Source: Patescibacteria group bacterium (GTDB lineage: Bacteria; Patescibacteriota; Microgenomatia; UBA1406). From it: DNA of 64,000 bases. The translations under genes were made by a program, and so were the position numbers. Every line of letters begins with the position of its first letter. The stretch's first letter is position 1. The notes under the pieces are model-generated. The model saw only the letters and a program-made list of their open reading frames with translations, had not been told where the DNA came from and did not search any database. Where the stretch lies: contig JBAYJK010000001.1 in assembly GCA_041665145.1 (NCBI GenBank), forward strand, positions 293,629 through 357,628, in the 5' to 3' direction. Of the stretch, positions 2,978 through 62,805 are shown one piece after another.

Positions 2978-4501
2978 TTATTTCGACTCGGTGAGCACTA
3001 CCTGGGGGTAGATCTTCTTGGTAAGTTCTTCTACTTCGTTTTTCATAAGCGGAAACAATGTCGCTTCTCGTGCGGTCACGTCTTCCAGAAACCAAAAAAG
3101 ACGTTCACTATGTGCATAGCCTGAAGTCGGTGGCATACCGTACTCGAGCATTTCAACGTAATCTATATCAAGCATCTGTGCTTCATCATCTCCTGCATCC
3201 CTCTGTTTCTGCTGGTCAAGGAATCGCTCAAGCTGGTCCTGAGGATCATTTAACTCGGAGTACCCGTTGCCCAGTTCTGATCCGGCAATTATGACATGGA
3301 ATCGTTCAGTCAATTCCGGTTTATCGGGTTTGGACTTGGCAAGCGGGGACATGAACTTTGGTTCATTGATTAAAAATGCCGGTCCTGCGATGGTCTTTCT
3401 GATGAGCTTCCACAAATTGTCGATCAGGCGGTTGCGGTTGATGGCGCCGGTCAGGACAACTTTTTCTCTCTTTAATATCGCAAGCATTTCCTCATCAGAG
3501 GTTGTAAAAATATCCACGCCAAAACGGTCTGTAATACATTGCCCGTAATCTATTTCTTTCCAATCGTCCGCAAGATCGAATGTATGGCCATGAGACTCAA
3601 ATTTAGTTTTCCCATACACTTCTTGTGCCGTGTGCCGGATTATGTCGCGTACGTATAGCATATTTTCCCGATAACTGACGTATGCCCAGTACCATTCGAG
3701 CTGATAGTACTCTTGTAAATGCTCTTCGCTTGTTCCTTCGTTTCTGAAATTCGGTGCCAACGTAAATACTTTTTCAAACCCTCCGCCGATAAGTCTTTTC
3801 TGATAGAGTTCCGTAGAGATCCTCATGTAGAAATCCTGATCAAGGTCGTTGTGGTGGGTAACGAATGGGCGGGCATCTGCTCCTCCCGTAACATGTTCAA
3901 GCACGGGAGTTTCGACTTCGACAAAGCCGTGTTTGCGCATGAATTCCCGGGAAACCTGCCAGAATTTAGCCTTCCTGAAAAATAATTCCTTACGTTCAGG
4001 ATTTGTTATAAGGTCTAAATATCTTCGTCTGAACTGCAATTCTTTTTCATTCAGTTGATTGGGAAGCGGGCGCAGACTTTTAGTCAGTAATCTGAGATGG
4101 GTAACTTGCAAAGAAACCTCACCCCGAACTGTTTTAATAACGGTTCCATGTGCTTCTACAAAATCACCTACGTCAAAGAGTGACAAATGATCCCATCCAA
4201 GATACGAATTTTCAAGCTCCTCAATAAGGGTATCTTGCTTAAGGAACAATTGAATTTTCCCGGATTGGTCCACAAGGTCCGCAAATGCCAGTTTACCGTG
4301 TTCCCGCATTGACATAAGACGTCCGGTAAGATGTACTTTTTTATTTTCAAAATCACCGAAATTGTCCGTGACGTGAGTGTTTGCAAAGTCTTTCTGGGCA
4401 GTGGATGGATATGGATTTATGCCCAGATCACGCAGTGCTTTTAGTTTTTCTATTCTTTTAGCACGCTGACCGACAAAGTCATCAGCAAGTTGAGTGTTCA
4501 T
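2978..4501 (-). CDS. lysS: lysyl-tRNA synthetase, class II
   Basis: 507 aa with an OB-fold anticodon-binding N-domain and a class II core (FVEVETPVL, NFRNEG, GLGIDRL-like C-terminal region). Full-length ORF. Confidence 0.9.
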   Translation of the reverse strand: MNTQLADDFVGQRAKRIEKLKALRDLGINPYPSTAQKDFANTHVTDNFGDFENKKVHLTGRLMSMREHGKLAFADLVDQSGKIQLFLKQDTLIEELENSYLGWDHLSLFDVGDFVEAHGTVIKTVRGEVSLQVTHLRLLTKSLRPLPNQLNEKELQFRRRYLDLITNPERKELFFRKAKFWQVSREFMRKHGFVEVETPVLEHVTGGADARPFVTHHNDLDQDFYMRISTELYQKRLIGGGFEKVFTLAPNFRNEGTSEEHLQEYYQLEWYWAYVSYRENMLYVRDIIRHTAQEVYGKTKFESHGHTFDLADDWKEIDYGQCITDRFGVDIFTTSDEEMLAILKREKVVLTGAINRNRLIDNLWKLIRKTIAGPAFLINEPKFMSPLAKSKPDKPELTERFHVIIAGSELGNGYSELNDPQDQLERFLDQQKQRDAGDDEAQMLDIDYVEMLEYGMPPTSGYAHSERLFWFLEDVTAREATLFPLMKNEVEELTKKIYPQVVLTESK

Positions 4502-4964: not shown

Positions 4965-5084
4965 TTGGTACAATATACCATATATTTGTGAGAAAATCGT
5001 GCCGATGCACAGTTCAAACTGTCTATTCGGTGCATCGCGCATCCTCGATGCTGAGTTTGTCGAGCATCGGGATCCATATCGCTT

Positions 5085-5157
5085 GCTCTTATCGTCTAGA
5101 GGCCTAGGACACCAGGTTCTCAACCTGGGAACACGGGTTCGAATCCCGTTGAGAGCA
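5085..5157 (+). tRNA. tRNA-Glu (anticodon CTC)
   Basis: The sequence is GCTCTTATCGTCTAGAGGCCTAGGACACCAGGTTCTCAACCTGGGAACACGGGTTCGAATCCCGTTGAGAGCA. The acceptor stem is GCTCTTA/TGAGAGC with one G-T pair. The anticodon arm is CCAGG-TTCTCAA-CCTGG and the T arm is ACGGG-TTCGAAT-CCCGT. CCA is not encoded. Confidence 0.9.
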
Positions 5158-36749: not shown

Positions 36750-37193
36750 ATGAAATCCCGTTTAGCAGGTTTTATTGCCCTGTTTTTATGCCTTTCATTG
36801 TTGATGGTTCCTGCTGTTTTGGCAAATAACCCAGGAGTAACCAGAGTTAGGGGAAATGTCTATGATCAAGACAACGGGGGAGCGGGAATCGGTGGTCTCA
36901 CCGTCAACGTAACTTGCAACGGAAATTCACGAAACGCCACAACTGACGGCAACGGATTATATGTGGTCGACTATACCCGTTCGGAATGCCCGCAGTTTGG
37001 ACCGGTCAGTTCTGCCGTTTCGCACAACGGACAATCCCAGTCTGACACGGTATATGTATCCGACGTGTATACTGCTACGATGGACTTTTACTTCGGGACG
37101 ATAAGCGTTCCGGAATTCGGCATGATCCCGGGAGCGATTGCGGCAATTGGATCAATTGGAACATACCTGGCACTTAGGAGAAAGAGAACCTAA
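36750..37193 (+). CDS. small secreted protein with a C-terminal VPEFG-TM-RRKR sorting signal (PEF/PEFG-CTERM-like)
   Basis: Signal peptide MKSRLAGFIALFLCLSLLMVPAVLA. A carboxypeptidase-regulatory-like beta domain (RGNVYDQDN...GLTVNVTCNGNSRNATTDGNGLY). The C-terminus is ISVPEFGMIPGAIAAIGSIGTYLALRRKRT. The start is trimmed from the ORF-track 36732, with TATATT 6 nt upstream. Confidence 0.65.
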   Translation: MKSRLAGFIALFLCLSLLMVPAVLANNPGVTRVRGNVYDQDNGGAGIGGLTVNVTCNGNSRNATTDGNGLYVVDYTRSECPQFGPVSSAVSHNGQSQSDTVYVSDVYTATMDFYFGTISVPEFGMIPGAIAAIGSIGTYLALRRKRT

Positions 37194-37315
37194 ATTCAAA
37201 GCTCAAATCTACAACCTTCAAATCAAATTCAAAATTCAAATGATAACCTTCAAAAAGTTTTGAATTTTAGATTTTGAATTTGATTTGTCATTTGTCTATT
37301 TGAATTTTGAATTTT
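37192..37315. repeat. AT-rich inverted-repeat hairpin element, gene-less form (copy B)
   Basis: AAATTCAAAGCTCAAATCTACAA...TGATTTGTCATTTGTCTATTTGAATTTTGAATTT. It starts inside the upstream stop codon. Confidence 0.85.
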
Positions 37316-38917: not shown

Positions 38918-39394
38918 GAAATTCAAAGATCAAATCTACAACCCTCAATTGAAATTCAAATGACAACCTTCAATTGAAATCTAAAATTCAAAATACAAAG
39001 AATTATTTCTTGTTAATGGCGCCGAATATGAGAGAGAGTTCTTTGGCTTCCTGAAGGAGCCTAGTAATTAAAGCACGTTGTGTTTCATCTGCAAACTCGA
39101 TCATTCGCAACCAATGGATAGTTTCCTTCGCCTCTTTTTTGCAAATACCAATCTTTGCATGGAAATCTTTTTTGGAGTCGGCACCGTTGGCTTCCATATA
39201 GTTGGCTCCGACACTTGTTGCAGATCTTATTATTTGCGAGATTAGTGGAACAGTAATTATTGTTTTTCTGATGCTGTTGCACAACGAAATTATTTGAGTG
39301 CCAAATAGGGTAGTTCGCACCTCAAGGTCGTATATTTTTTCTCCATTTGAATTTTGAATTTGATTTGTCATTTGTAGATTTGAAGGTTGAATTT
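38918..39394. repeat. 477-bp inverted-repeat-bounded unit enclosing a four-helix-bundle gene (long form, copy 1)
   Basis: 85-nt left arm, a minus-strand ORF at 39003..39371, and a 23-nt right arm. The termini are AAATTCAAAGATCAAATCTACAA on the left and, as reverse complement, AAATTCAACCTTCAAATCTACAA on the right. Confidence 0.75.
39003..39371 (-). CDS. four-helix-bundle protein (23S rRNA intervening-sequence protein family)
   Basis: 122 aa with LISQIIRSATSVGANYMEANGADSKKDFHAKIGICKKEAKETIHWLRMI, which matches the TIGR02436/PF05635-type pattern (R.A.S...N..EA......DF..K...A.KE..ET..WL). Confidence 0.8.
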   Translation of the reverse strand: MTNQIQNSNGEKIYDLEVRTTLFGTQIISLCNSIRKTIITVPLISQIIRSATSVGANYMEANGADSKKDFHAKIGICKKEAKETIHWLRMIEFADETQRALITRLLQEAKELSLIFGAINKK

Positions 39395-50873: not shown

Positions 50874-50989
50874 AAATTCAAAGCTCAAATGACAACCTTC
50901 AATTGAAATTCAAAATTCAAGCTTCAAAATAGTTTTGAATTTTAGATTTTGAATTTGATTTGTCATTTGTATATTTGATTTTTGAATTT
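50874..50989. repeat. AT-rich inverted-repeat hairpin element, gene-less form (copy F; coordinates +/-2)
   Basis: AAATTCAAAGCTCAAATGACAACCTTCAATTGAAATTCAAAATTCAAGC...TGATTTGTCATTTGTATATTTGATTTTTGAATTT. It abuts the stop codon of 50990..51445. Confidence 0.8.
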
Positions 50990-51514: not shown

Positions 51515-51694
51515 AAATTCAAAGCTCAAATGACAACCTTCAATTGAAATTCAAAATCTGAATGTCACCCCCGGAACAAAGTACCGGGGATCCAGATTCC
51601 ATCCCTGGATTCCCGACTGGATCGGGAATGACACCTTTTGGAGTTTTGAATTTTGAGTTTCATTTGTAGATTTGTCCATTTGAATTTTGAATTT
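51515..51694. repeat. composite repeat: AT-rich hairpin element (copy G) with a GC-rich triple-hairpin element nested at its centre (51563..51633)
   Basis: AAATTCAAAGCTCAAATGACAACCTTCAATTGAAATTCAAAATCTGAA [TGTCACCCCCGGAACAAAGTACCGGGGATCCAGATTCCATCCCTGGATTCCCGACTGGATCGGGAATGACA] CCTTTTGGAGTTTTGAATTTTGAGTTTCATTTGTAGATTTGTCCATTTGAATTTTGAATTT. Confidence 0.8.
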
Positions 51695-53274: not shown

Positions 53275-53750
53275 AAATTCAAAATTCAAATCTACAACCC
53301 TCAATTGAAATTCAAATGACAGCCTTCAATTGAAATCTAAAATTCAAAATTCAAAGAATCATTTCTTGTTAATGGCACCGAAAATGAGTGAAAGTTCTTT
53401 GGCTTCCTGAAGAAGCTTCAGAATAAACGATTTCTGAGTTCCGTCGGCAAATTCAATCATTCGCAACCAATGAATTGTTTCTTTCGACTCTTTTTTGCAG
53501 ATACTTATTTTTGCATGGAAATCTTTTTTTGAATCGGCGCCATTAGCTTCCATGTAATTGGCGCCCACACTTGTTGCAGATCTGATAATCTGCGAAATCA
53601 ACGGTGCAGTGACAATAGTTTTCTTTACATTGTTACAAAGAGTGATTACTTGAGTACCGAATACGCTTGTCCGTTCTTCCAGATCGTATATTTTCTCTCC
53701 ATTTGAATTTTGTGCTTGATTTGTCATTTGTAGATTTGAAGGTTGAGTTT
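53274..53750. repeat. 477-bp inverted-repeat-bounded unit enclosing a four-helix-bundle gene (long form, copy 2)
   Basis: It has the same length and layout as 38918..39394. The left arms match at 81 of 85 nt and the right arms at 22 of 23 nt by hand alignment. Confidence 0.75.
53359..53727 (-). CDS. four-helix-bundle protein (23S rRNA intervening-sequence protein family), paralog
   Basis: 122 aa. It differs from the 39003..39371 product at about 19 positions and shares the SQIIRSATSVGANYMEANGADSKKDFHAKI...KETIHWLRMIEFAD core. Confidence 0.8.
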   Translation of the reverse strand: MTNQAQNSNGEKIYDLEERTSVFGTQVITLCNNVKKTIVTAPLISQIIRSATSVGANYMEANGADSKKDFHAKISICKKESKETIHWLRMIEFADGTQKSFILKLLQEAKELSLIFGAINKK

Positions 53751-54720: not shown

Positions 54721-54777
54721 CATAAAAAGTTGTCCATATTTGATTTCTTATCTGCAGTGCGTTATAATAGTCCGTAT

Positions 54778-55680
54778 ATGACACGTGAGCGAACGCCTAA
54801 TCCTACAGACCTGCTTGCTGCTCTCAGAGACACATCCGGATATGTTGATTTTGCACGAGTAGTCGTGGCTCGAAAGATGGGTAGAGTAGAGCTTTCCGCT
54901 ATTGGAGCAGAACTTGACCAGATATTCAGAAAAGACTTGGTTATGTGTGCCCGACAAGGTATTGTAGAATCGGTTCCTTCAGGCACTCTTAATTGTGTTC
55001 CCAGGCCAAACTTATTTGATGTTTCTGTTGCCGCGGTTTTTCGGGCGCTTGATCAACTGAAAATTATGGTTCCCCTGACAGAAATACCCCACGTACAACG
55101 TGTGGAGGCAGTTATGGCTGCATTTACCCGGAGAGCTCTTCGGGAAATACGTATGACTTCACGAAATGCACAGTACATGAATCCCGGAATCGTTCTTGCC
55201 GAAGATATGCTGGATGAAGCGTCGGATGCCCGTATGGGTTTGTTGTTAGGAATAAGTGCACCTGAGCTGAGAAGAAGTTTGGTAGATCCGCATGTTGCCG
55301 AAATGAAAGATTCTGCAGCTATTCGGCAACGGGAGGATTCTATGCCTAAAGCCGGACGGAATATACAGATAGGTGAACAAATGGTTGCTACGGCGCACGA
55401 GGGCTTCAGTATGACTCAGTCGCCGCGTGATTCTCTGTATTATTGGATTGCCAGGGCACAAGCATTTGATATTCCCCTCAACGATCATGAAGTAGTATTG
55501 CTCCATGCAATTGCGCAAACAACAAATGCCCGACATACGCTTCATCAGACAATTGAGGCCAACAAGCTTTCTCCCGCGCTTGACCAACCGTCGTCCGAGG
55601 CACTTATTGCCGGTATGTCAGACTTGAATGCTCTCCACACGTGGGGAAGAGCAAGGACGGGAATTGTGACTGCTAAGTAA
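54778..55680 (+). CDS. hypothetical protein
   Basis: Long ORF with no family recognised. ATG 54778 (MTRERTPNP...) is preferred over the TTG at 54730. Confidence 0.35.
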   Translation: MTRERTPNPTDLLAALRDTSGYVDFARVVVARKMGRVELSAIGAELDQIFRKDLVMCARQGIVESVPSGTLNCVPRPNLFDVSVAAVFRALDQLKIMVPLTEIPHVQRVEAVMAAFTRRALREIRMTSRNAQYMNPGIVLAEDMLDEASDARMGLLLGISAPELRRSLVDPHVAEMKDSAAIRQREDSMPKAGRNIQIGEQMVATAHEGFSMTQSPRDSLYYWIARAQAFDIPLNDHEVVLLHAIAQTTNARHTLHQTIEANKLSPALDQPSSEALIAGMSDLNALHTWGRARTGIVTAK

Positions 55681-55785
55681 AATTCAAAGCTCAAATGACA
55701 ACCTTCAATTGAAATTCAAAGTTCAAATTTTAAATATTTAGATTTTGAATTTGATTTGTCATTTGTAGATTTGAATTTTGAATTT
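55679..55785. repeat. AT-rich inverted-repeat hairpin element, gene-less form (copy I)
   Basis: AAAATTCAAAGCTCAAATGACAACCTTCAATTGAAATTCAAAGTTCAAATTTTAAATATTTAGATTTTGAATTTGATTTGTCATTTGTAGATTTGAATTTTGAATTT. It overlaps the upstream stop codon. Confidence 0.85.
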
Positions 55786-55821
55786 AGTGTTTCTTCCCAG
55801 TACGCATACTATAGGCCGAAT

Positions 55822-57087
55822 ATGGTATACTACCCCATGTCGACCGAAGGGCAAAACAGCGGTTTTCCGTACTACCCACACAACCTGCGTATATCGAGTG
55901 CGCGCGGGCTCGAATATGCGGTTACCGTTATGACCAGGGAACTTCCTCGTGATCTTATTGACCATGTCGAGGTAAATCAGGCAGCCCACGACAGACTTTC
56001 CCCGGATCAAAAAGAGTATACAACTGTAGATTGGCTGGTGAGTCATGCGTGGCTCAGCACCGAACGGGGTGACAGGGAGGGCAAAAACGTACTTACTCCC
56101 TACGGGTTCGGGCGTGTAATCCCGGTAGAATACGGGTCGTATATGGCTAACGGATTGCACTATGGGGTAATAACACAAAAGGGCGGTCTGGTTGCCGGGG
56201 CCGCATACCTTGCCTCCCGCTATTTAGATACCAACGACACCACATATCCGTATGGATTATTCTCAAAAGGAAACGCGGATGTAGAAACAGGAACGAGCAA
56301 TTGTGCCCTGAATTATGGGTTGCGCAGTTCATTGGTATTGGGGACAATCATTCTTAAAACTCAAGCGTTGGAAAAGTGGATTAAAACCGCATGGGATGTT
56401 GACCCATTGTCACAGGACACGCTGGTGAGAATTTTGAGACATTTCAATTCGAACAAAGAAGTTCCATCAATTATATTCCGCATGAATAGTCAACTTGCCC
56501 GTATTACCGATTCAAATATTGATAGCGGCCTCAGTTTGGGTCACGTTCCTGAGTTTTATAACCATAGACGTAATGCAAAGCTGGCAAACCAACGGATCGG
56601 TTTTATATGTTGGGTGCACGAATTAATGGCGCAGAACAATTATGATCCTCGGCTTGTTGCAGCACTTAATAAACTTGCATATAGTCCCCTCGGAACTGCA
56701 ACGGAAGAAGACTTTAAACTCTTTCTGACGTTTTACACGCAACTGATTACAACGGAAAAAGAGAAGTTGGCTAAACTGTTTGCAGAACGATCTGGCGAAC
56801 CACAATGCGTGCGGATTTTAAATCTTAACATGCGTGACAAAGATACCGAACCATCCTATATACGTACTGATTATGAAGCTGATCCGGGCGATTCGGATTA
56901 TCCAAAATCGGTATATTTTGGCGACATGACCTCCAAACGGTACCTCAGTAATTTGCATCACGTTGTGGCGTGTCATTGGAGCACATTGAAACATTTCTTT
57001 AGTCATTTAGATCGTGCAAACATGAGAATATTTAACTTCCTTGAAGCGCACGATATTCATATCAATGAAATATTTCTTCATAATTAA
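55822..57087 (+). CDS. hypothetical protein
   Basis: Long ORF with no family recognised. The ORF-track start 55756 is repeat-encoded (MSFVDLNFEF). The start is probably ATG 55822 or 55837, and TGGTATACT lies 5 nt before 55837. Confidence 0.35.
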   Translation: MVYYPMSTEGQNSGFPYYPHNLRISSARGLEYAVTVMTRELPRDLIDHVEVNQAAHDRLSPDQKEYTTVDWLVSHAWLSTERGDREGKNVLTPYGFGRVIPVEYGSYMANGLHYGVITQKGGLVAGAAYLASRYLDTNDTTYPYGLFSKGNADVETGTSNCALNYGLRSSLVLGTIILKTQALEKWIKTAWDVDPLSQDTLVRILRHFNSNKEVPSIIFRMNSQLARITDSNIDSGLSLGHVPEFYNHRRNAKLANQRIGFICWVHELMAQNNYDPRLVAALNKLAYSPLGTATEEDFKLFLTFYTQLITTEKEKLAKLFAERSGEPQCVRILNLNMRDKDTEPSYIRTDYEADPGDSDYPKSVYFGDMTSKRYLSNLHHVVACHWSTLKHFFSHLDRANMRIFNFLEAHDIHINEIFLHN

Positions 57088-57090
57088 CCC

Positions 57091-57993
57091 ATGACATATA
57101 TTGAATTTCAACCACCACAACTACCTGTTCCGGACTATCCGAAAAGCCCTCAACCATGGTCTCAATTTGATTCGGCGCGACCTGTCGAATGGATTCCGAC
57201 GATGATTCCCGCCGATAAGCTTACGGATATGGTGCGAATGGTAAACAAAGGAGTATGGATTGCCCGCCGCACAGATCCGCAAACCGCTGTGCTTGTACCG
57301 GCACCTGCTTTTAATGAAACCTGGAGTATTGCAAACGGGGGAGGCGTGACTGAAGTATGGTTACGGACAGCAGATGTCATGCCGCATGCTACGGTACCAT
57401 ATGACGCGTGGAATGTCCAAGATTACAAATTGACTGTTTATCCACAGTTTAGTGAACAGGCAGTTAGTACGGTTCACACTCTCGCTCATACGCTGGGACG
57501 GGATCCGGAACGATATCGTCAGGGTGATGCGATGCATAACCGCACGCTTGCATTTTTGAATACACCGTTTCAAGCAGTTGTCACTCCGCACGTACTGGTA
57601 GTAGGAAATATGAATAAAGCTCTTTTTACTATTACCGATCGAGGCGTATTTTATCGGGAATCAACGGGATTGGCACAGATACGGAAGCCGTATGAGGAAT
57701 ACTATCAATTGCCGGGAGTTCGTTATATCCCGCCCAGTAACGGGGAATTCGGTGAGTTCAGAATACATCTTGCGACTTTGTCGGTGCCCAATGATATTTT
57801 TGGAGAAAAAAGAGGTTCTATGCCGACCGTATTCGAAAAATATTTGACGGTTCGGTTTTGCAGCACATCGCCCAACGATATTGGTTCATCAGTACCATGT
57901 ACATTGGGAGAACCACACCGGAGATCGTTCGATTCACAATCGGTCCGTGATAGAATCGTAAATGTTTCGATAGATCTAGAAATGAAAAACTAG
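57091..57993 (+). CDS. hypothetical protein
   Basis: 300-aa ORF starting 3 nt after the upstream stop. No family recognised. Confidence 0.35.
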   Translation: MTYIEFQPPQLPVPDYPKSPQPWSQFDSARPVEWIPTMIPADKLTDMVRMVNKGVWIARRTDPQTAVLVPAPAFNETWSIANGGGVTEVWLRTADVMPHATVPYDAWNVQDYKLTVYPQFSEQAVSTVHTLAHTLGRDPERYRQGDAMHNRTLAFLNTPFQAVVTPHVLVVGNMNKALFTITDRGVFYRESTGLAQIRKPYEEYYQLPGVRYIPPSNGEFGEFRIHLATLSVPNDIFGEKRGSMPTVFEKYLTVRFCSTSPNDIGSSVPCTLGEPHRRSFDSQSVRDRIVNVSIDLEMKN

Positions 57994-58005
57994 TAATTTA
58001 TAATT

Positions 58006-58770
58006 ATGGCCATGAATCTCGAACAAACAGCCACACTGAGAGAATTAGAACGTTCCCTGTCGCAACGTGCCGAACTTGCACATCGCGAACCATGTGAGCT
58101 TCTGGAGTTTTGGCGGAGATTCTATGAGTTACTTGCCCGACAAATAGCATATAGAGAACGTGCTGAACCGGAGTTTTGCGACGTACCTGAACTTCCGTGG
58201 TCTACGGACGCGGTTCGTGAACTCGTGCATGACGGATGGTATGTGGTGTATATGCCCCCGGAGTTTTCCGAAGAAGCTCATCGCCCGCTCCTTATGTCAG
58301 TACTTCCTATGGTAGTGCAGAGGCCGGAGTTTAGTCCACTGGATTTGACTGATCCGCATATGCCGGTGGAACGCGAGTCTGCAGTTACGGAGGGGTGGGT
58401 TGCTGTTCGCCCGGAAACACCGCAAACCCTTATGTGTTCCTCGACCTTTCCGTGCGTTATTAAAGCACTTGAATCACGCGTCTTGCATCCGGCGACACTC
58501 AATATGGGGATAGTTACTGCTGTTTTACATGATGCTATCATGCGAACAAAACCAAGACCCCTGATGCGCCCAAGTTTTTTGTGTATGGGAACAAGCGGAG
58601 GAGTTAAACCTACAACAGCACATCTTGACAGGCACACGTATCATGGAATTCGGTATCTCTTAGATATTCAACCCCAACCGTTCGGTAAAAAAAGCGTCTT
58701 GACTATCGCGGAAGAACCCGGTCCGGAGATTCCCGGAATGTGCGGGGTTTTGGCGGTAAGACGATTATAG
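58006..58770 (+). CDS. hypothetical protein
   Basis: 254-aa ORF with no family recognised. Confidence 0.35.
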   Translation: MAMNLEQTATLRELERSLSQRAELAHREPCELLEFWRRFYELLARQIAYRERAEPEFCDVPELPWSTDAVRELVHDGWYVVYMPPEFSEEAHRPLLMSVLPMVVQRPEFSPLDLTDPHMPVERESAVTEGWVAVRPETPQTLMCSSTFPCVIKALESRVLHPATLNMGIVTAVLHDAIMRTKPRPLMRPSFLCMGTSGGVKPTTAHLDRHTYHGIRYLLDIQPQPFGKKSVLTIAEEPGPEIPGMCGVLAVRRL

Positions 58771-58807
58771 TTAATGGTTAATAGTTTAGAGTTTATAGTT
58801 AATAGTT
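58766..58807. repeat. heptanucleotide-periodic array (6 units)
   Basis: TATAGTT AATGGTT AATAGTT TAGAGTT TATAGTT AATAGTT. It overlaps the stop of the upstream gene and lies upstream of the third four-helix-bundle gene. Confidence 0.8.
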
Positions 58808-58863
58808 GGGAATGTGGTATATAAACCGTTGTTTTGTCACGAACTAAGTAATACGATGGACCC

Positions 58864-59241
58864 GTGATCAATAGTTTCACTGATTTAAGCTCATGGCAAA
58901 TTTCTCATCAACTCGTCATTGAGGTTTATCAAGTGACTAAATTATTTCCTACTACTGAAACGTACTCTCTCACAGATCAGATGAGAAGGGCAGCGGTATC
59001 GATAACAAGTAATATTGCTGAGGGTTTCGGCAGAAAAGCTGTTAAAGAGAAAATCCAGTTCTACCACTTATCACTTGGATCAACTACCGAGTTACATAAT
59101 CAATGCATGTTGGCAAGAGATCTGGGATACGTAAATACTGATTACTATGAAAAAATCGAACAAAGAATAATTGTAGTTTACAAGCTTATTTGGGCTTCGA
59201 TCCGCTCATTCAAACAATTTTCAAATCACTCTAAACTATAA
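58864..59241 (+). CDS. four-helix-bundle protein (23S rRNA intervening-sequence protein family), divergent third copy
   Basis: GTG start. FTDLSSWQISHQLVIEVYQVTKLFPTTETYSLTDQMRRAAVSITSNIAEGFGRKAVKEKIQFYHLSLGSTTELHNQ is a textbook pattern for this family. Confidence 0.85.
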   Translation: MINSFTDLSSWQISHQLVIEVYQVTKLFPTTETYSLTDQMRRAAVSITSNIAEGFGRKAVKEKIQFYHLSLGSTTELHNQCMLARDLGYVNTDYYEKIEQRIIVVYKLIWASIRSFKQFSNHSKL

Positions 59242-59257
59242 ACCATCAACCCTAAAC
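59230..59257. repeat. heptanucleotide-periodic array (4 units), inverted relative to 58766..58807
   Basis: TCTAAAC TATAAAC CATCAAC CCTAAAC. The reverse complement reads GTTTAGG GTTGATG GTTTATA GTTTAGA, the same GTTNNNN phase as the upstream array. It overlaps the 3' end of the gene. Confidence 0.7.
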
Positions 59258-59421
59258 TAATATCCCAACACCATCACGTGTTCATAATACCTTCCGAAAT
59301 AAAACGCAAGAATCGGCACTACTACGAAGATTGCCATTGCAAGTGCTTTGGAGAACGGTGTAACAGTCGTTGCCCACTTCGGCAATGAGGATTTGGTTTG
59401 TTTTACTTTTTTAACAGACAT
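59257..59421 (-). CDS. small membrane protein (tentative)
   Basis: The ORF is trimmed to MSVKKVKQTKSSLPKWATTVTPFSKALAMAIFVVVPILAFYFGRYYEHVMVLGY. The ORF-track extension MNFEF... is repeat-encoded. Confidence 0.3.
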   Translation of the reverse strand: MSVKKVKQTKSSLPKWATTVTPFSKALAMAIFVVVPILAFYFGRYYEHVMVLGY

Positions 59422-59460
59422 ATGTATTGAAAAACTAATAATGCCTGTATTCAATATAAC

Positions 59461-59744
59461 AAATTCAAAATTCAAATGACAACCCTCAAGTGAAATTCAA
59501 AATTCGAATCTACAACCCTCAATTCAAATTCAAAGCTCAAACATCATTCCCGCACAAGTGATGTCATTCCCGCGTAGGCGGGAATCCAGGAACTTTGTAT
59601 CTGGATCCCCGGTATTTGTATTCCGGGGATGACAAACATATCTAGATTGCCGCGCTTCATCCCGCTGAGCGGGACTTCGCTCGCAATGACGCCTTTTGAA
59701 TTTTGAATTTGATTTGTCATTTGTCTATTTGAATTTTGAGTTTT
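59461..59744. repeat. composite repeat: AT-rich hairpin element (copy J) with nested GC-rich elements (59541..59693)
   Basis: The arms are AAATTCAAAATTCAAATGACAACCCTCAAG... and ...TTTTGAATTTTGAATTTGATTTGTCATTTGTCTATTTGAATTTTGAGTTTT. The centre holds a triple-hairpin copy at 59563..59633 plus a second GC-rich palindrome (TTGCCGCGCTTCATCCCGCTGAGCGGGACTTCGCTCGCAATGAC). Confidence 0.8.
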
Positions 59745-61657: not shown

Positions 61658-61700
61658 TTGTGTAGTATAGCAAAAATAGTATAAGAGATCACAAGGGTAA

Positions 61701-61791
61701 ATTTCTAATTTCTAGTTTCTAGTTTCTATTAAACTATCCACTCTCAACTATCGACTATAAACTATTAACTCTTAACTATAAACTCTAATCT
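61701..61791. repeat. heptanucleotide-periodic array, 13 consecutive units
   Basis: ATTTCTA ATTTCTA GTTTCTA GTTTCTA TTAAACT ATCCACT CTCAACT ATCGACT ATAAACT ATTAACT CTTAACT ATAAACT CTAATCT. Confidence 0.85.
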
Positions 61792-61797
61792 TTAGCA

Positions 61798-62655: not shown

Positions 62656-62788
62656 AAATTCAAAGCACAAATAGACAAATTTACAAATCAAGCTTAAAAT
62701 TCAAAGGCTGAAACTTCAGGAATATTATGTTTGGTAACATTTGATTTTTGAATTTGATTTGTCATTTGTGGATTTGAATTTTGAATTT
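62656..62788. repeat. AT-rich inverted-repeat hairpin element, gene-less form (copy K, most divergent left arm)
   Basis: AAATTCAAAGCACAAATAGACAAATTTACAAATCAAGC...TTGATTTTTGAATTTGATTTGTCATTTGTGGATTTGAATTTTGAATTTT. Confidence 0.75.
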
Positions 62789-62805
62789 TCTGCTAAGATA
62801 ATTCT

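Follow-up and report, generated by a model that had tools for sequence, protein, structure and literature searches.

Intervening sequences (IVS) occur within the 23S rRNA genes of Leptospira, Coxiella, Brucella and the Xanthomonas group, where an open reading frame (ORF) of the PF05635/S23p family lies between terminal inverted repeats that form a stem. They are dispensable and patchily distributed, and their ORF is subject to decay. In Coxiella burnetii the S23p ORF is preceded by two or three tandem GACAGAT heptamers whose copy number varies among strains; RNase III makes its 5' cut where the first repeat begins, inside the 28-bp stem that the terminal repeats form, and in one strain 176 bp of the ORF are deleted (PMC4990558). 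The S23p protein of Coxiella is apparently not made, although the IVS is conserved (PMC4990558). Here we describe a gene of this family, encoding a four-helix-bundle (4HB) protein, which is placed between two complementary arrays of tandem heptamers in a 64,000-nt stretch (hereafter the window) of contig JBAYJK010000001.1 from a Patescibacteria group bacterium. The layout is the known architecture of the 23S rRNA intervening sequences, which was not recognised in the initial annotation of this DNA, and its identification is secure. Our preferred reading, to which we give a probability of roughly 0.55, is that the locus is a dispensable cassette of the IVS type situated outside rRNA, in which a PF05635 gene is held between heptamer arms that would pair in the transcript.

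Tandem heptamers with no accepted explanation are also known from several bacterial phyla, and include the short tandemly repeated repetitive (STRR) sequences of cyanobacteria, the GGGAATC pairs of Xanthomonas and the GGGGA(T/C)T repeats of Nostoc (PMC4692102), as well as the TAACTGA repeats of the Beggiatoaceae (PMC4679880). They resemble the arrays described here in being intergenic, in having 2-14 units and in occurring often as convergent inverted pairs (70 in X. campestris), with a copy number that varies among strains. They differ in that most of them enclose no gene and in that those studies draw no connection with PF05635; in addition they are G-rich and have been discussed as quadruplex formers, whereas the arms found in the Candidate Phyla Radiation (CPR) are A+T-rich. 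A point of contact does exist in Xanthomonas, where a four-unit GGGAATC array lies between bccP (XCC0517) and the 4HB gene XCC0516 and overlaps the start codon of the latter (PMC4692102, supplementary table), a link to the family of XCC0516 that its authors did not draw. The third related system is the Avd protein of diversity-generating retroelements (DGR), a pentamer with a homologous four-helix-bundle fold (PMC10053308).

The upstream arm of the cassette (Table 1) reads TATAGTT AATGGTT AATAGTT TAGAGTT TATAGTT AATAGTT, and its first unit holds the TAG stop (58768-58770) of the preceding ORF (58006-58770), as had been stated. In the downstream arm the units TCTAAAC TATAAAC CATCAAC CCTAAAC (59230-59257) are flanked on both sides by partial units; the arm includes the last four codons and the TAA stop (59239-59241) of the 4HB gene, and the array ends at the stop (59257-59259) of a small convergent ORF on the minus strand (59257-59421). 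Tandem Repeats Finder reported the upstream array with a period of 7, 5.9 copies, 82% matches and a score of 54. The downstream array is weaker, with 16/21 self-matches at a shift of 7 by manual count, and was not called by this program. A search for inverted repeats paired 58765-58807 with 59213-59255 (43 nt, 74%) and, in a second register, 58763-58799 with 59228-59264 (37 nt, 78%), further registers being shifted by multiples of 7. The best inverted core spans 23 nt with 21 matches and a score of 18, a value that was not attained in any of 2000 shufflings of the downstream flank (mean 8.2, maximum 14.5). The placement of six upstream and four inverted downstream heptamers given in the initial annotation is confirmed, the downstream number being four to five. 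Moreover, in the predicted RNA fold of 58755-59270 both arrays pair, in the minimum free energy structure as well as in the centroid, and the computed RNA duplex of the two arms has an energy of -24.5 kcal/mol.

The cassette has two features of an IVS, an ORF enclosed by terminal inverted repeats from which a long stem can form and tandem-heptamer arms adjoining that ORF, as in Coxiella and in five rRNA copies that we examined. It departs from them in its position, between the ORFs 58006-58770 and 59257-59421 and not within an rRNA helix; an Rfam scan of the window returned a single tRNA and no other known RNA family. A consensus scan upstream of 58864 found no promoter or terminator belonging to the cassette itself. 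Copy number of the heptamers did not vary in the available material, the only two other contigs that carry the gene (L001 and L162) being 100% identical to the window. Both of these are independent short-read Logan contigs and both end at base 59591, in the loop of the hairpin 59460-59744, which indicates that such elements break assemblies.

Membership of the encoded protein in the family is clear, with 116.9 bits against Pfam PF05635 (cut-off 33.8, E 5.9e-34) and 111.6 bits against TIGR02436 (cut-off 24, E 2e-32). Its closest solved relative is XCC0516 (PDB 2GSC, E 1.6e-19). It scores 21.3 bits with the equivalog model for Avd, for which the cut-off is 80, and hence falls outside the DGR proteins; Pfam gave no match for the neighbouring ORFs, and neither a reverse transcriptase nor a pair of template and variable repeats adjoins the gene. 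Avd binds nucleic acids and, by homology with it, the 4HB protein is probably a nucleic-acid-binding pentamer. A profile search of the six frames found exactly three 4HB genes in the window, the other two (in the second and third cassettes of Table 1) being also PF05635. Between these two paralogues dN/dS is 0.04, with dS saturated, which indicates strong purifying selection on the protein. None of the three proteins matched a defence-system model of PADLOC. A word-indexed search listed 3575 relatives of the studied protein at E<=1e-10, mostly from CPR bacteria, and among 50,697 phage records no homologue was found by tblastn at E<=1e-6.

In six metagenome loci (L134, L137, L144, L149, L155 and L159) a complete QueH (epoxyqueuosine reductase) was observed fused in frame to a 4HB domain. 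The linker is encoded by heptamers (..KSNKMSNDKVQMSNE..) with no intervening stop codon, and Pfam recognises in one such ORF of 315 aa both QueH (1e-61) and PF05635 (1e-14).

The initial annotation had held that the association of 4HB genes with inverted repeats is not accidental, and had proposed that relatives be surveyed. This was done with one genome per species by means of a core protein motif, giving 80 loci in 80 genomes, almost all of them Patescibacteria (CPR), and with a metagenome scan for a second subfamily using six peptide patterns, giving 72 loci, a set that is partly biased because one of the six patterns (MTNQIQNS) is itself repeat-encoded. As controls we used 301 neighbouring genes of the same loci and took as threshold the 95th percentile of their inverted-repeat score, which 5% of them exceed by definition. 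Above this threshold lay 70/80 of the CPR homologues and 63/72 of the second subfamily, that is, about 88% of 4HB genes against about 5% of other genes, so that far from being absent from most 4HB genes the flanking repeats are the rule. The median score was 18 for 4HB genes and 7.5 for the controls, and only 2.6% of the small genes in the same loci scored above the 99th percentile of the pairings between loci, which is a stricter threshold.

Period-7 arrays were found beside the 4HB gene upstream in 35/78 loci and downstream in 46/78, while periods of 5, 6, 8, 9 and 10 gave 0-1 each. In the typical layout the tandem heptamers reach the ATG and often extend into it, and their reverse complement is found at and after the stop codon. 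The arms of the CPR loci have a median length of 28 nt, and their inner ends coincide with the start (median 0) and stop (median -1) codons. The N-termini of the second subfamily (MTNQIQNSN, MSNDKVQMSNE and similar) are heptamer-encoded. In one locus, L077, four 4HB genes were seen within 6.3 kb.

The arrangement extends beyond CPR bacteria. Inverted heptamer-like arms accompany 12/16 plasmid-borne homologues, the twelve being from Nostoc, Calothrix, Stanieria, Geminocystis, Leptolyngbya, Picosynechococcus, Anabaena, Riemerella and Azospirillum; in Nostoc edaphicum they take the form (GTAGGGA)n/(TCCCTAC)n between nrdB and nrdA, and in Calothrix and N. punctiforme (GGGTGTA)n/(TACACCC)n. The Azospirillum copy and four other relatives are located inside 23S rRNA genes (Rfam LSU), and arms made of heptamer arrays, of CAGAAGT or ACAGAGG type, were present in 5/5 of these rRNA IVS. 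Taken with the 70/80 and 63/72 above, these counts show that the association is real and family-wide.

One could nevertheless suppose that the adjacency is incidental, the heptamer hairpins being intergenic punctuation (terminators or products of slippage) with small genes lying between them by chance. Period-7 arrays do occur elsewhere in the loci, at 0.15 per kb and in many cases as short-loop hairpins, and an excess of heptamers in bacteria has been attributed to polymerase slippage (work cited in PMC4692102). Four ordinary, non-4HB genes of the window also score as bracketed; they do so because complete hairpin copies are dispersed there, which means that the window alone cannot prove specificity and that the comparative data have to supply it. 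The figures of 88% against about 5%, and 2.6% for small genes, supply it, and in addition the arms stop exactly at start and stop codons, the same layout is found inside rRNA helices, and an unoccupied site described below has no hairpin. We consider incidental adjacency effectively excluded.

The two arms of a cassette vary together. The 49 loci that have strong arrays both upstream and downstream yield 37 distinct consensus heptamers; when the upstream consensus is set against the reverse complement of its downstream counterpart, the two differ at a mean of 1.0/7 positions, compared with 3.2/7 in direct comparison. Computed RNA duplexes between arms reach -34.5 kcal/mol within a locus and -20.3 kcal/mol between loci. 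Heptamer sequence differs freely from one element to another, and the two repeat sequences of the window that the initial annotation called unrelated are of one kind, the AAATTCA-type arms of the other two cassettes being heptamer arrays as well.

The relation between heptamer and protein was examined as the initial annotation had suggested, and bears on the proposal that the arrays are RNA or DNA binding sites of the pentameric protein that they enclose, for example an autoregulatory operator, with the gene-less hairpins as further targets of a regulon or as a processing signal. A trend exists, but it is weak (rho -0.18): heptamers within one mismatch of each other occur in 35% of pairs at 70-80% protein identity and in 7-8% of pairs below 60%. 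The subfamily-1 arm, with ATGACAAATCAAAT in it, stays conserved between genomes whose proteins share only about 60% identity, and within the window the arms are more conserved than synonymous sites. The nucleic-acid binding of the homologous Avd is also in favour of such a role. Furthermore the arms have 4-6 units and the protein is pentameric (2GSC; PMC4990558). Against this, 37 heptamers accompany proteins that are 45-60% identical, and in locus L014 two subfamily-3 paralogues, both with E of about 1e-55 to one profile, have unrelated heptamers, so that a strict pairing of subfamily and repeat type had to be given up. Binding would also leave the complementarity of the arms unexplained, and in Coxiella the IVS persists with its S23p apparently not made (PMC4990558). 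We regard a binding-site function as improbable.

Two other roles for the arms were considered and rejected. Heptamers acting as three-frame stop-codon insulators are not general, such stops being present in 29% of the upstream flanks of 4HB genes and 13% of controls, and the upstream arm does not serve as a Shine-Dalgarno sequence, SD-like 4-mers being found in 22% against 21% of controls.

Most cassettes sit in operons. Fifty-three of 70 point the same way as the genes on both sides, from which they are separated by gaps of 32-37 nt that hold the arm only, and the sites include atpG|atpD, thyA|folA and nrdA|nrdB. Others lie in CRISPR-cas operons on cyanobacterial plasmids (L166, L177 and L178); cas6|4HB|cas4 is the order in Pseudanabaena as in Anabaena sp. 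90, and in Picosynechococcus it is cas10|4HB|cmr3. This common direction and the tight operon neighbours suggest that most copies are co-transcribed, with both arms in one RNA. In L084 a subfamily-1 cassette was seen to begin about 30 nt after a tRNA gene (632-703), so spacers flanking tRNA genes are used too.

The atpG-atpD junction of related Saccharibacteria (AtpG 76-91% identical) shows the cassette in several states. It is intact in L081, L061 and L174; in L173 the gene is frameshifted; L171 retains both arms but lacks the 5' two-thirds of the gene; and in L172 the cassette is absent, leaving an 11-nt spacer, TAAggagaatattgATG, without heptamers. These states show that the cassette can be dispensed with. 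Its arms did not exist at the site beforehand, and decay runs toward arms-only hairpins like those found in the window. A further Saccharibacteria relative, L175, has small ORFs without Pfam match (84, 89 and 45 aa; 2254-2508, 3367-3636 and 5007-5144) in its atpA|atpG, atpG|atpD and atpD|atpC spacers; the atpG|atpD spacer, which is the one that was read, has no heptamer arms, and these ORFs may be a different kind of operon-spacer insert.

Table 1. Cassettes, gene-less hairpins and heptamer arrays of the window (family A denotes the arm family of the second and third cassettes)
Feature	Coordinates	Strand	Description
Studied cassette, upstream arm	58766..58807	+	six tandem heptamers, consensus WAWRGTT, no C
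Studied cassette, 4HB gene (cargo)	58864..59241	+	125 aa, GTG start, PF05635/TIGR02436
Studied cassette, downstream arm	59227..59262	+	inverted heptamers and partial units, no G
Second cassette	38919..39394	-	left arm 38919-39002, 4HB gene 39003-39371, right arm 39346-39394
Third cassette	53275..53750	-	left arm 53275-53358, 4HB gene 53359-53727, right arm 53701-53750
Gene-less family-A hairpin	35603..35724		
Gene-less family-A hairpin	37192..37315		overlaps stop of ORF 36732-37193
Gene-less family-A hairpin	38291..38396		
Gene-less family-A hairpin	50874..50989		between minus-strand genes; + strand orientation like all copies
Family-A hairpin	51515..51694		loop holds G+C-rich palindromic module of about 80 nt in place of gene
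Gene-less family-A hairpin	55680..55785		directly after stop of ORF 54730-55680
Family-A hairpin	59460..59744		G+C-rich palindromic insert of about 150 nt in loop; 200 nt downstream of studied cassette
Gene-less family-A hairpin	62657..62789		degenerate
Gene-less heptamer-array pair	61696..61794		(AATTTCT/AGTTTCT)x4 then (TAAACTA)x8; complementarity weak

All three 4HB genes of the window are bracketed by inverted repeats, as the initial annotation had noted. In the second and third cassettes the gene stands at the apex of a long quasi-palindrome whose arms are made of heptamer-like units (AAATTCA, AAATGAC / TGAATTT); the arms of the two are about 96% identical and the genes 78% identical in DNA. 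The right arm of the second cassette encodes the ATG and first codons (MTNQIQNSN). The same arm family recurs in ten copies between 35.6 and 62.8 kb, two with the 4HB gene, two with G+C-rich inserts and six gene-less. Nine of the ten carry the exact 16-mer TTGATTTGTCATTTGT, and in all nine of these the right arm encodes, on the minus strand, ATGACAAATCAA, which corresponds to the start and first codons of the 4HB gene. All ten have the same asymmetric + strand orientation, irrespective of the strand of the flanking genes. The heptamer-array pair at the end of Table 1 has instead the heptamer type (TAAACTA/TAGTTTC) and the polarity of the arms of the studied cassette. We observed no family-A hairpin in the first 35 kb of the window, and GC skew is mostly positive, its cumulative value climbing across the window.

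These copies bring up the possibility that the arms act as DNA, as the terminal inverted repeats of a mobile element of which the gene-less hairpins are derivatives similar to MITEs (miniature inverted-repeat transposable elements), moved or copied through hairpin or cruciform DNA or by a host enzyme which the 4HB protein recruits. The hairpins are indeed multi-copy short elements with terminal inverted repeats, as MITEs are, and share with them and with repetitive extragenic palindromes (REP) and bacterial interspersed mosaic elements (BIME) the traits of being short, intergenic, near-palindromic and very similar to one another. A mobile element would account for the presence within 29 kb of three cassettes together with eight hairpins of one arm family that lack the gene, with a uniform family orientation, for the four 4HB genes of L077, for presence, decay and absence at one site, for the retention of ATGACAAATCAA in hairpins that have lost the gene, for arms far more alike than the synonymous sites of the genes, and for arm mismatches that have no G-U preference. 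There is, on the other side, no transposase, recombinase or REP-associated tyrosine transposase (RAYT) gene associated with the cassettes or hairpins, among window ORFs that were only partly screened, and the helical bundle, 120 aa in length, is not known to contain any catalytic motif. Where homology between the second and third cassettes ends, we saw no target-site duplication. The hairpins also differ from MITEs, REP and BIME in that their arms are tandem heptamers and their full-length form carries the 4HB gene. Moreover the arms differ among paralogous cassettes of one genome (L014, L077), unlike repeats recognised by a single enzyme, and loss alone can explain the series at atpG-atpD. 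We hold this explanation to be possible but rather unlikely.

According to the reading that we prefer, an IVS-type cassette outside rRNA, the arms would pair in the transcript to form a stem of about 28 bp from which the whole ORF is looped out. By analogy with the rRNA copies and Coxiella, this stem is probably a substrate of RNase III, whether it is cut or only tolerated. Looping out or cutting would allow a dispensable insert to persist in operons or rRNA with little harm. The protein is retained by strong purifying selection; once the gene decays, the arms would persist as gene-less heptamer hairpins. The period of 7 may reflect replication slippage rather than function. How the cassette spreads we can only infer. 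In comparison with the IVS of rRNA, the copies of the window lie between protein-coding genes, their gene-less derivatives are dispersed in the genome and some copies are antisense to their neighbours.

Several observations weigh against this reading. The studied cassette is atypical, as its upstream arm stops 57 nt before the start codon and its downstream arm abuts a convergent gene, for which reason it does not occupy a simple operon spacer. The second and third cassettes run antisense to the genes beside them. In one Pseudanabaena copy the arrays are direct and not inverted, with about 17 AAAGCTA units upstream and AAAGCCA units downstream, and in three Nostoc copies that adjoin insertion sequence (IS) elements the arrays are non-complementary. 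The mismatches between arms do not carry the mark of selection on RNA either: those that are G-U-compatible on the sense strand number 47 and those compatible solely on the antisense number 50, a non-discriminating result that led us to abandon wobble as a sign of RNA-level selection, and transition-type mismatches are not enriched (97/274). DNA-level pairing or templated correction between arms fits these mismatch data equally well. In addition, the two window paralogues have arms that agree to about 96% though their synonymous sites are saturated, which points to homogenisation or a sequence-specific constraint, neither of which a plain stem would need.

Some features of the surroundings deserve mention. 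The small ORF 59257-59421(-), whose stop touches the downstream arm, encodes a likely membrane peptide (MSVKKVKQTKSSLPKWATTVTPFSKALAMAIFVVVPILAFYFGRYYEHVMVLGY) and has a good promoter match, TTGTCA-18-TATATT with TG (59453-59482), close upstream of the adjacent hairpin's left arm. Three consecutive genes (443, 300 and 254 aa) that immediately precede the cassette, at 55756-58770, are without Pfam match, and the region from 35 to 63 kb holds accessory genes that include exosortase, polysaccharide synthesis and glycosyl hydrolase-like genes. The G+C-rich loop modules (51565-51640 and 59542-59690) consist of nested short palindromes (gtcattcccgcgtaggcgggaatcc, ccccggaacaaagtaccgggga). Translation of a minus-strand ORF in the second module (59544-59720) gives a peptide ...VIPGIQ...WIPAYAGMT, which we take to be like spurious hypothetical proteins present in many unrelated genomes. 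Such a module may represent another small element, one with hairpin apices as its target.

A general rule that links PF05635 to heptamers was not found in the searchable full-text literature, subscription journals being outside its scope; heptamers were noted there only for the Coxiella IVS, and the papers on heptamer repeats that we found make no mention of the 4HB family. The generality of the heptamer cassettes and their setting outside rRNA thus appear to be new, and within the same literature we found no mention of how common the cassettes are in CPR operon spacers, of the series of decay states that leads to gene-less hairpins or of the bridge to the heptamer-repeat studies.

PF05635, a family without assigned function, hereby gains a structural rule, since its genes are nearly always found inside complementary heptamer arrays. 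Three literatures are joined by it: that of the rRNA intervening sequences, that of the tandem heptamers of cyanobacteria, Xanthomonas and Beggiatoaceae, and that of the Avd proteins of retroelements. A foreign gene, which would be looped out of the transcript, is tolerated even in such basic operons as atpG-atpD or nrdA-nrdB. For annotation, it follows that N- and C-termini of these proteins are often repeat-encoded, that fusions like QueH-4HB arise and that metagenome assemblies break at the hairpins. It is tempting to go further and to see PF05635 genes and tandem heptamer arrays as one class of self-propagating elements across phyla, whose protein binds, maintains or generates the arrays and whose non-autonomous remnants are the gene-less arrays and inverted pairs, thousands in number, among them the cyanobacterial STRR, the Xanthomonas GGGAATC pairs and the intergenic hairpins of CPR bacteria; this is a speculation which we think unlikely to hold. 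If true, it would explain the excess of 7-base repeats in bacterial genomes and would give a function to a protein family that has been without one since 1993. The function of the family and the origin of the heptamer repeats become in this way experimentally approachable.

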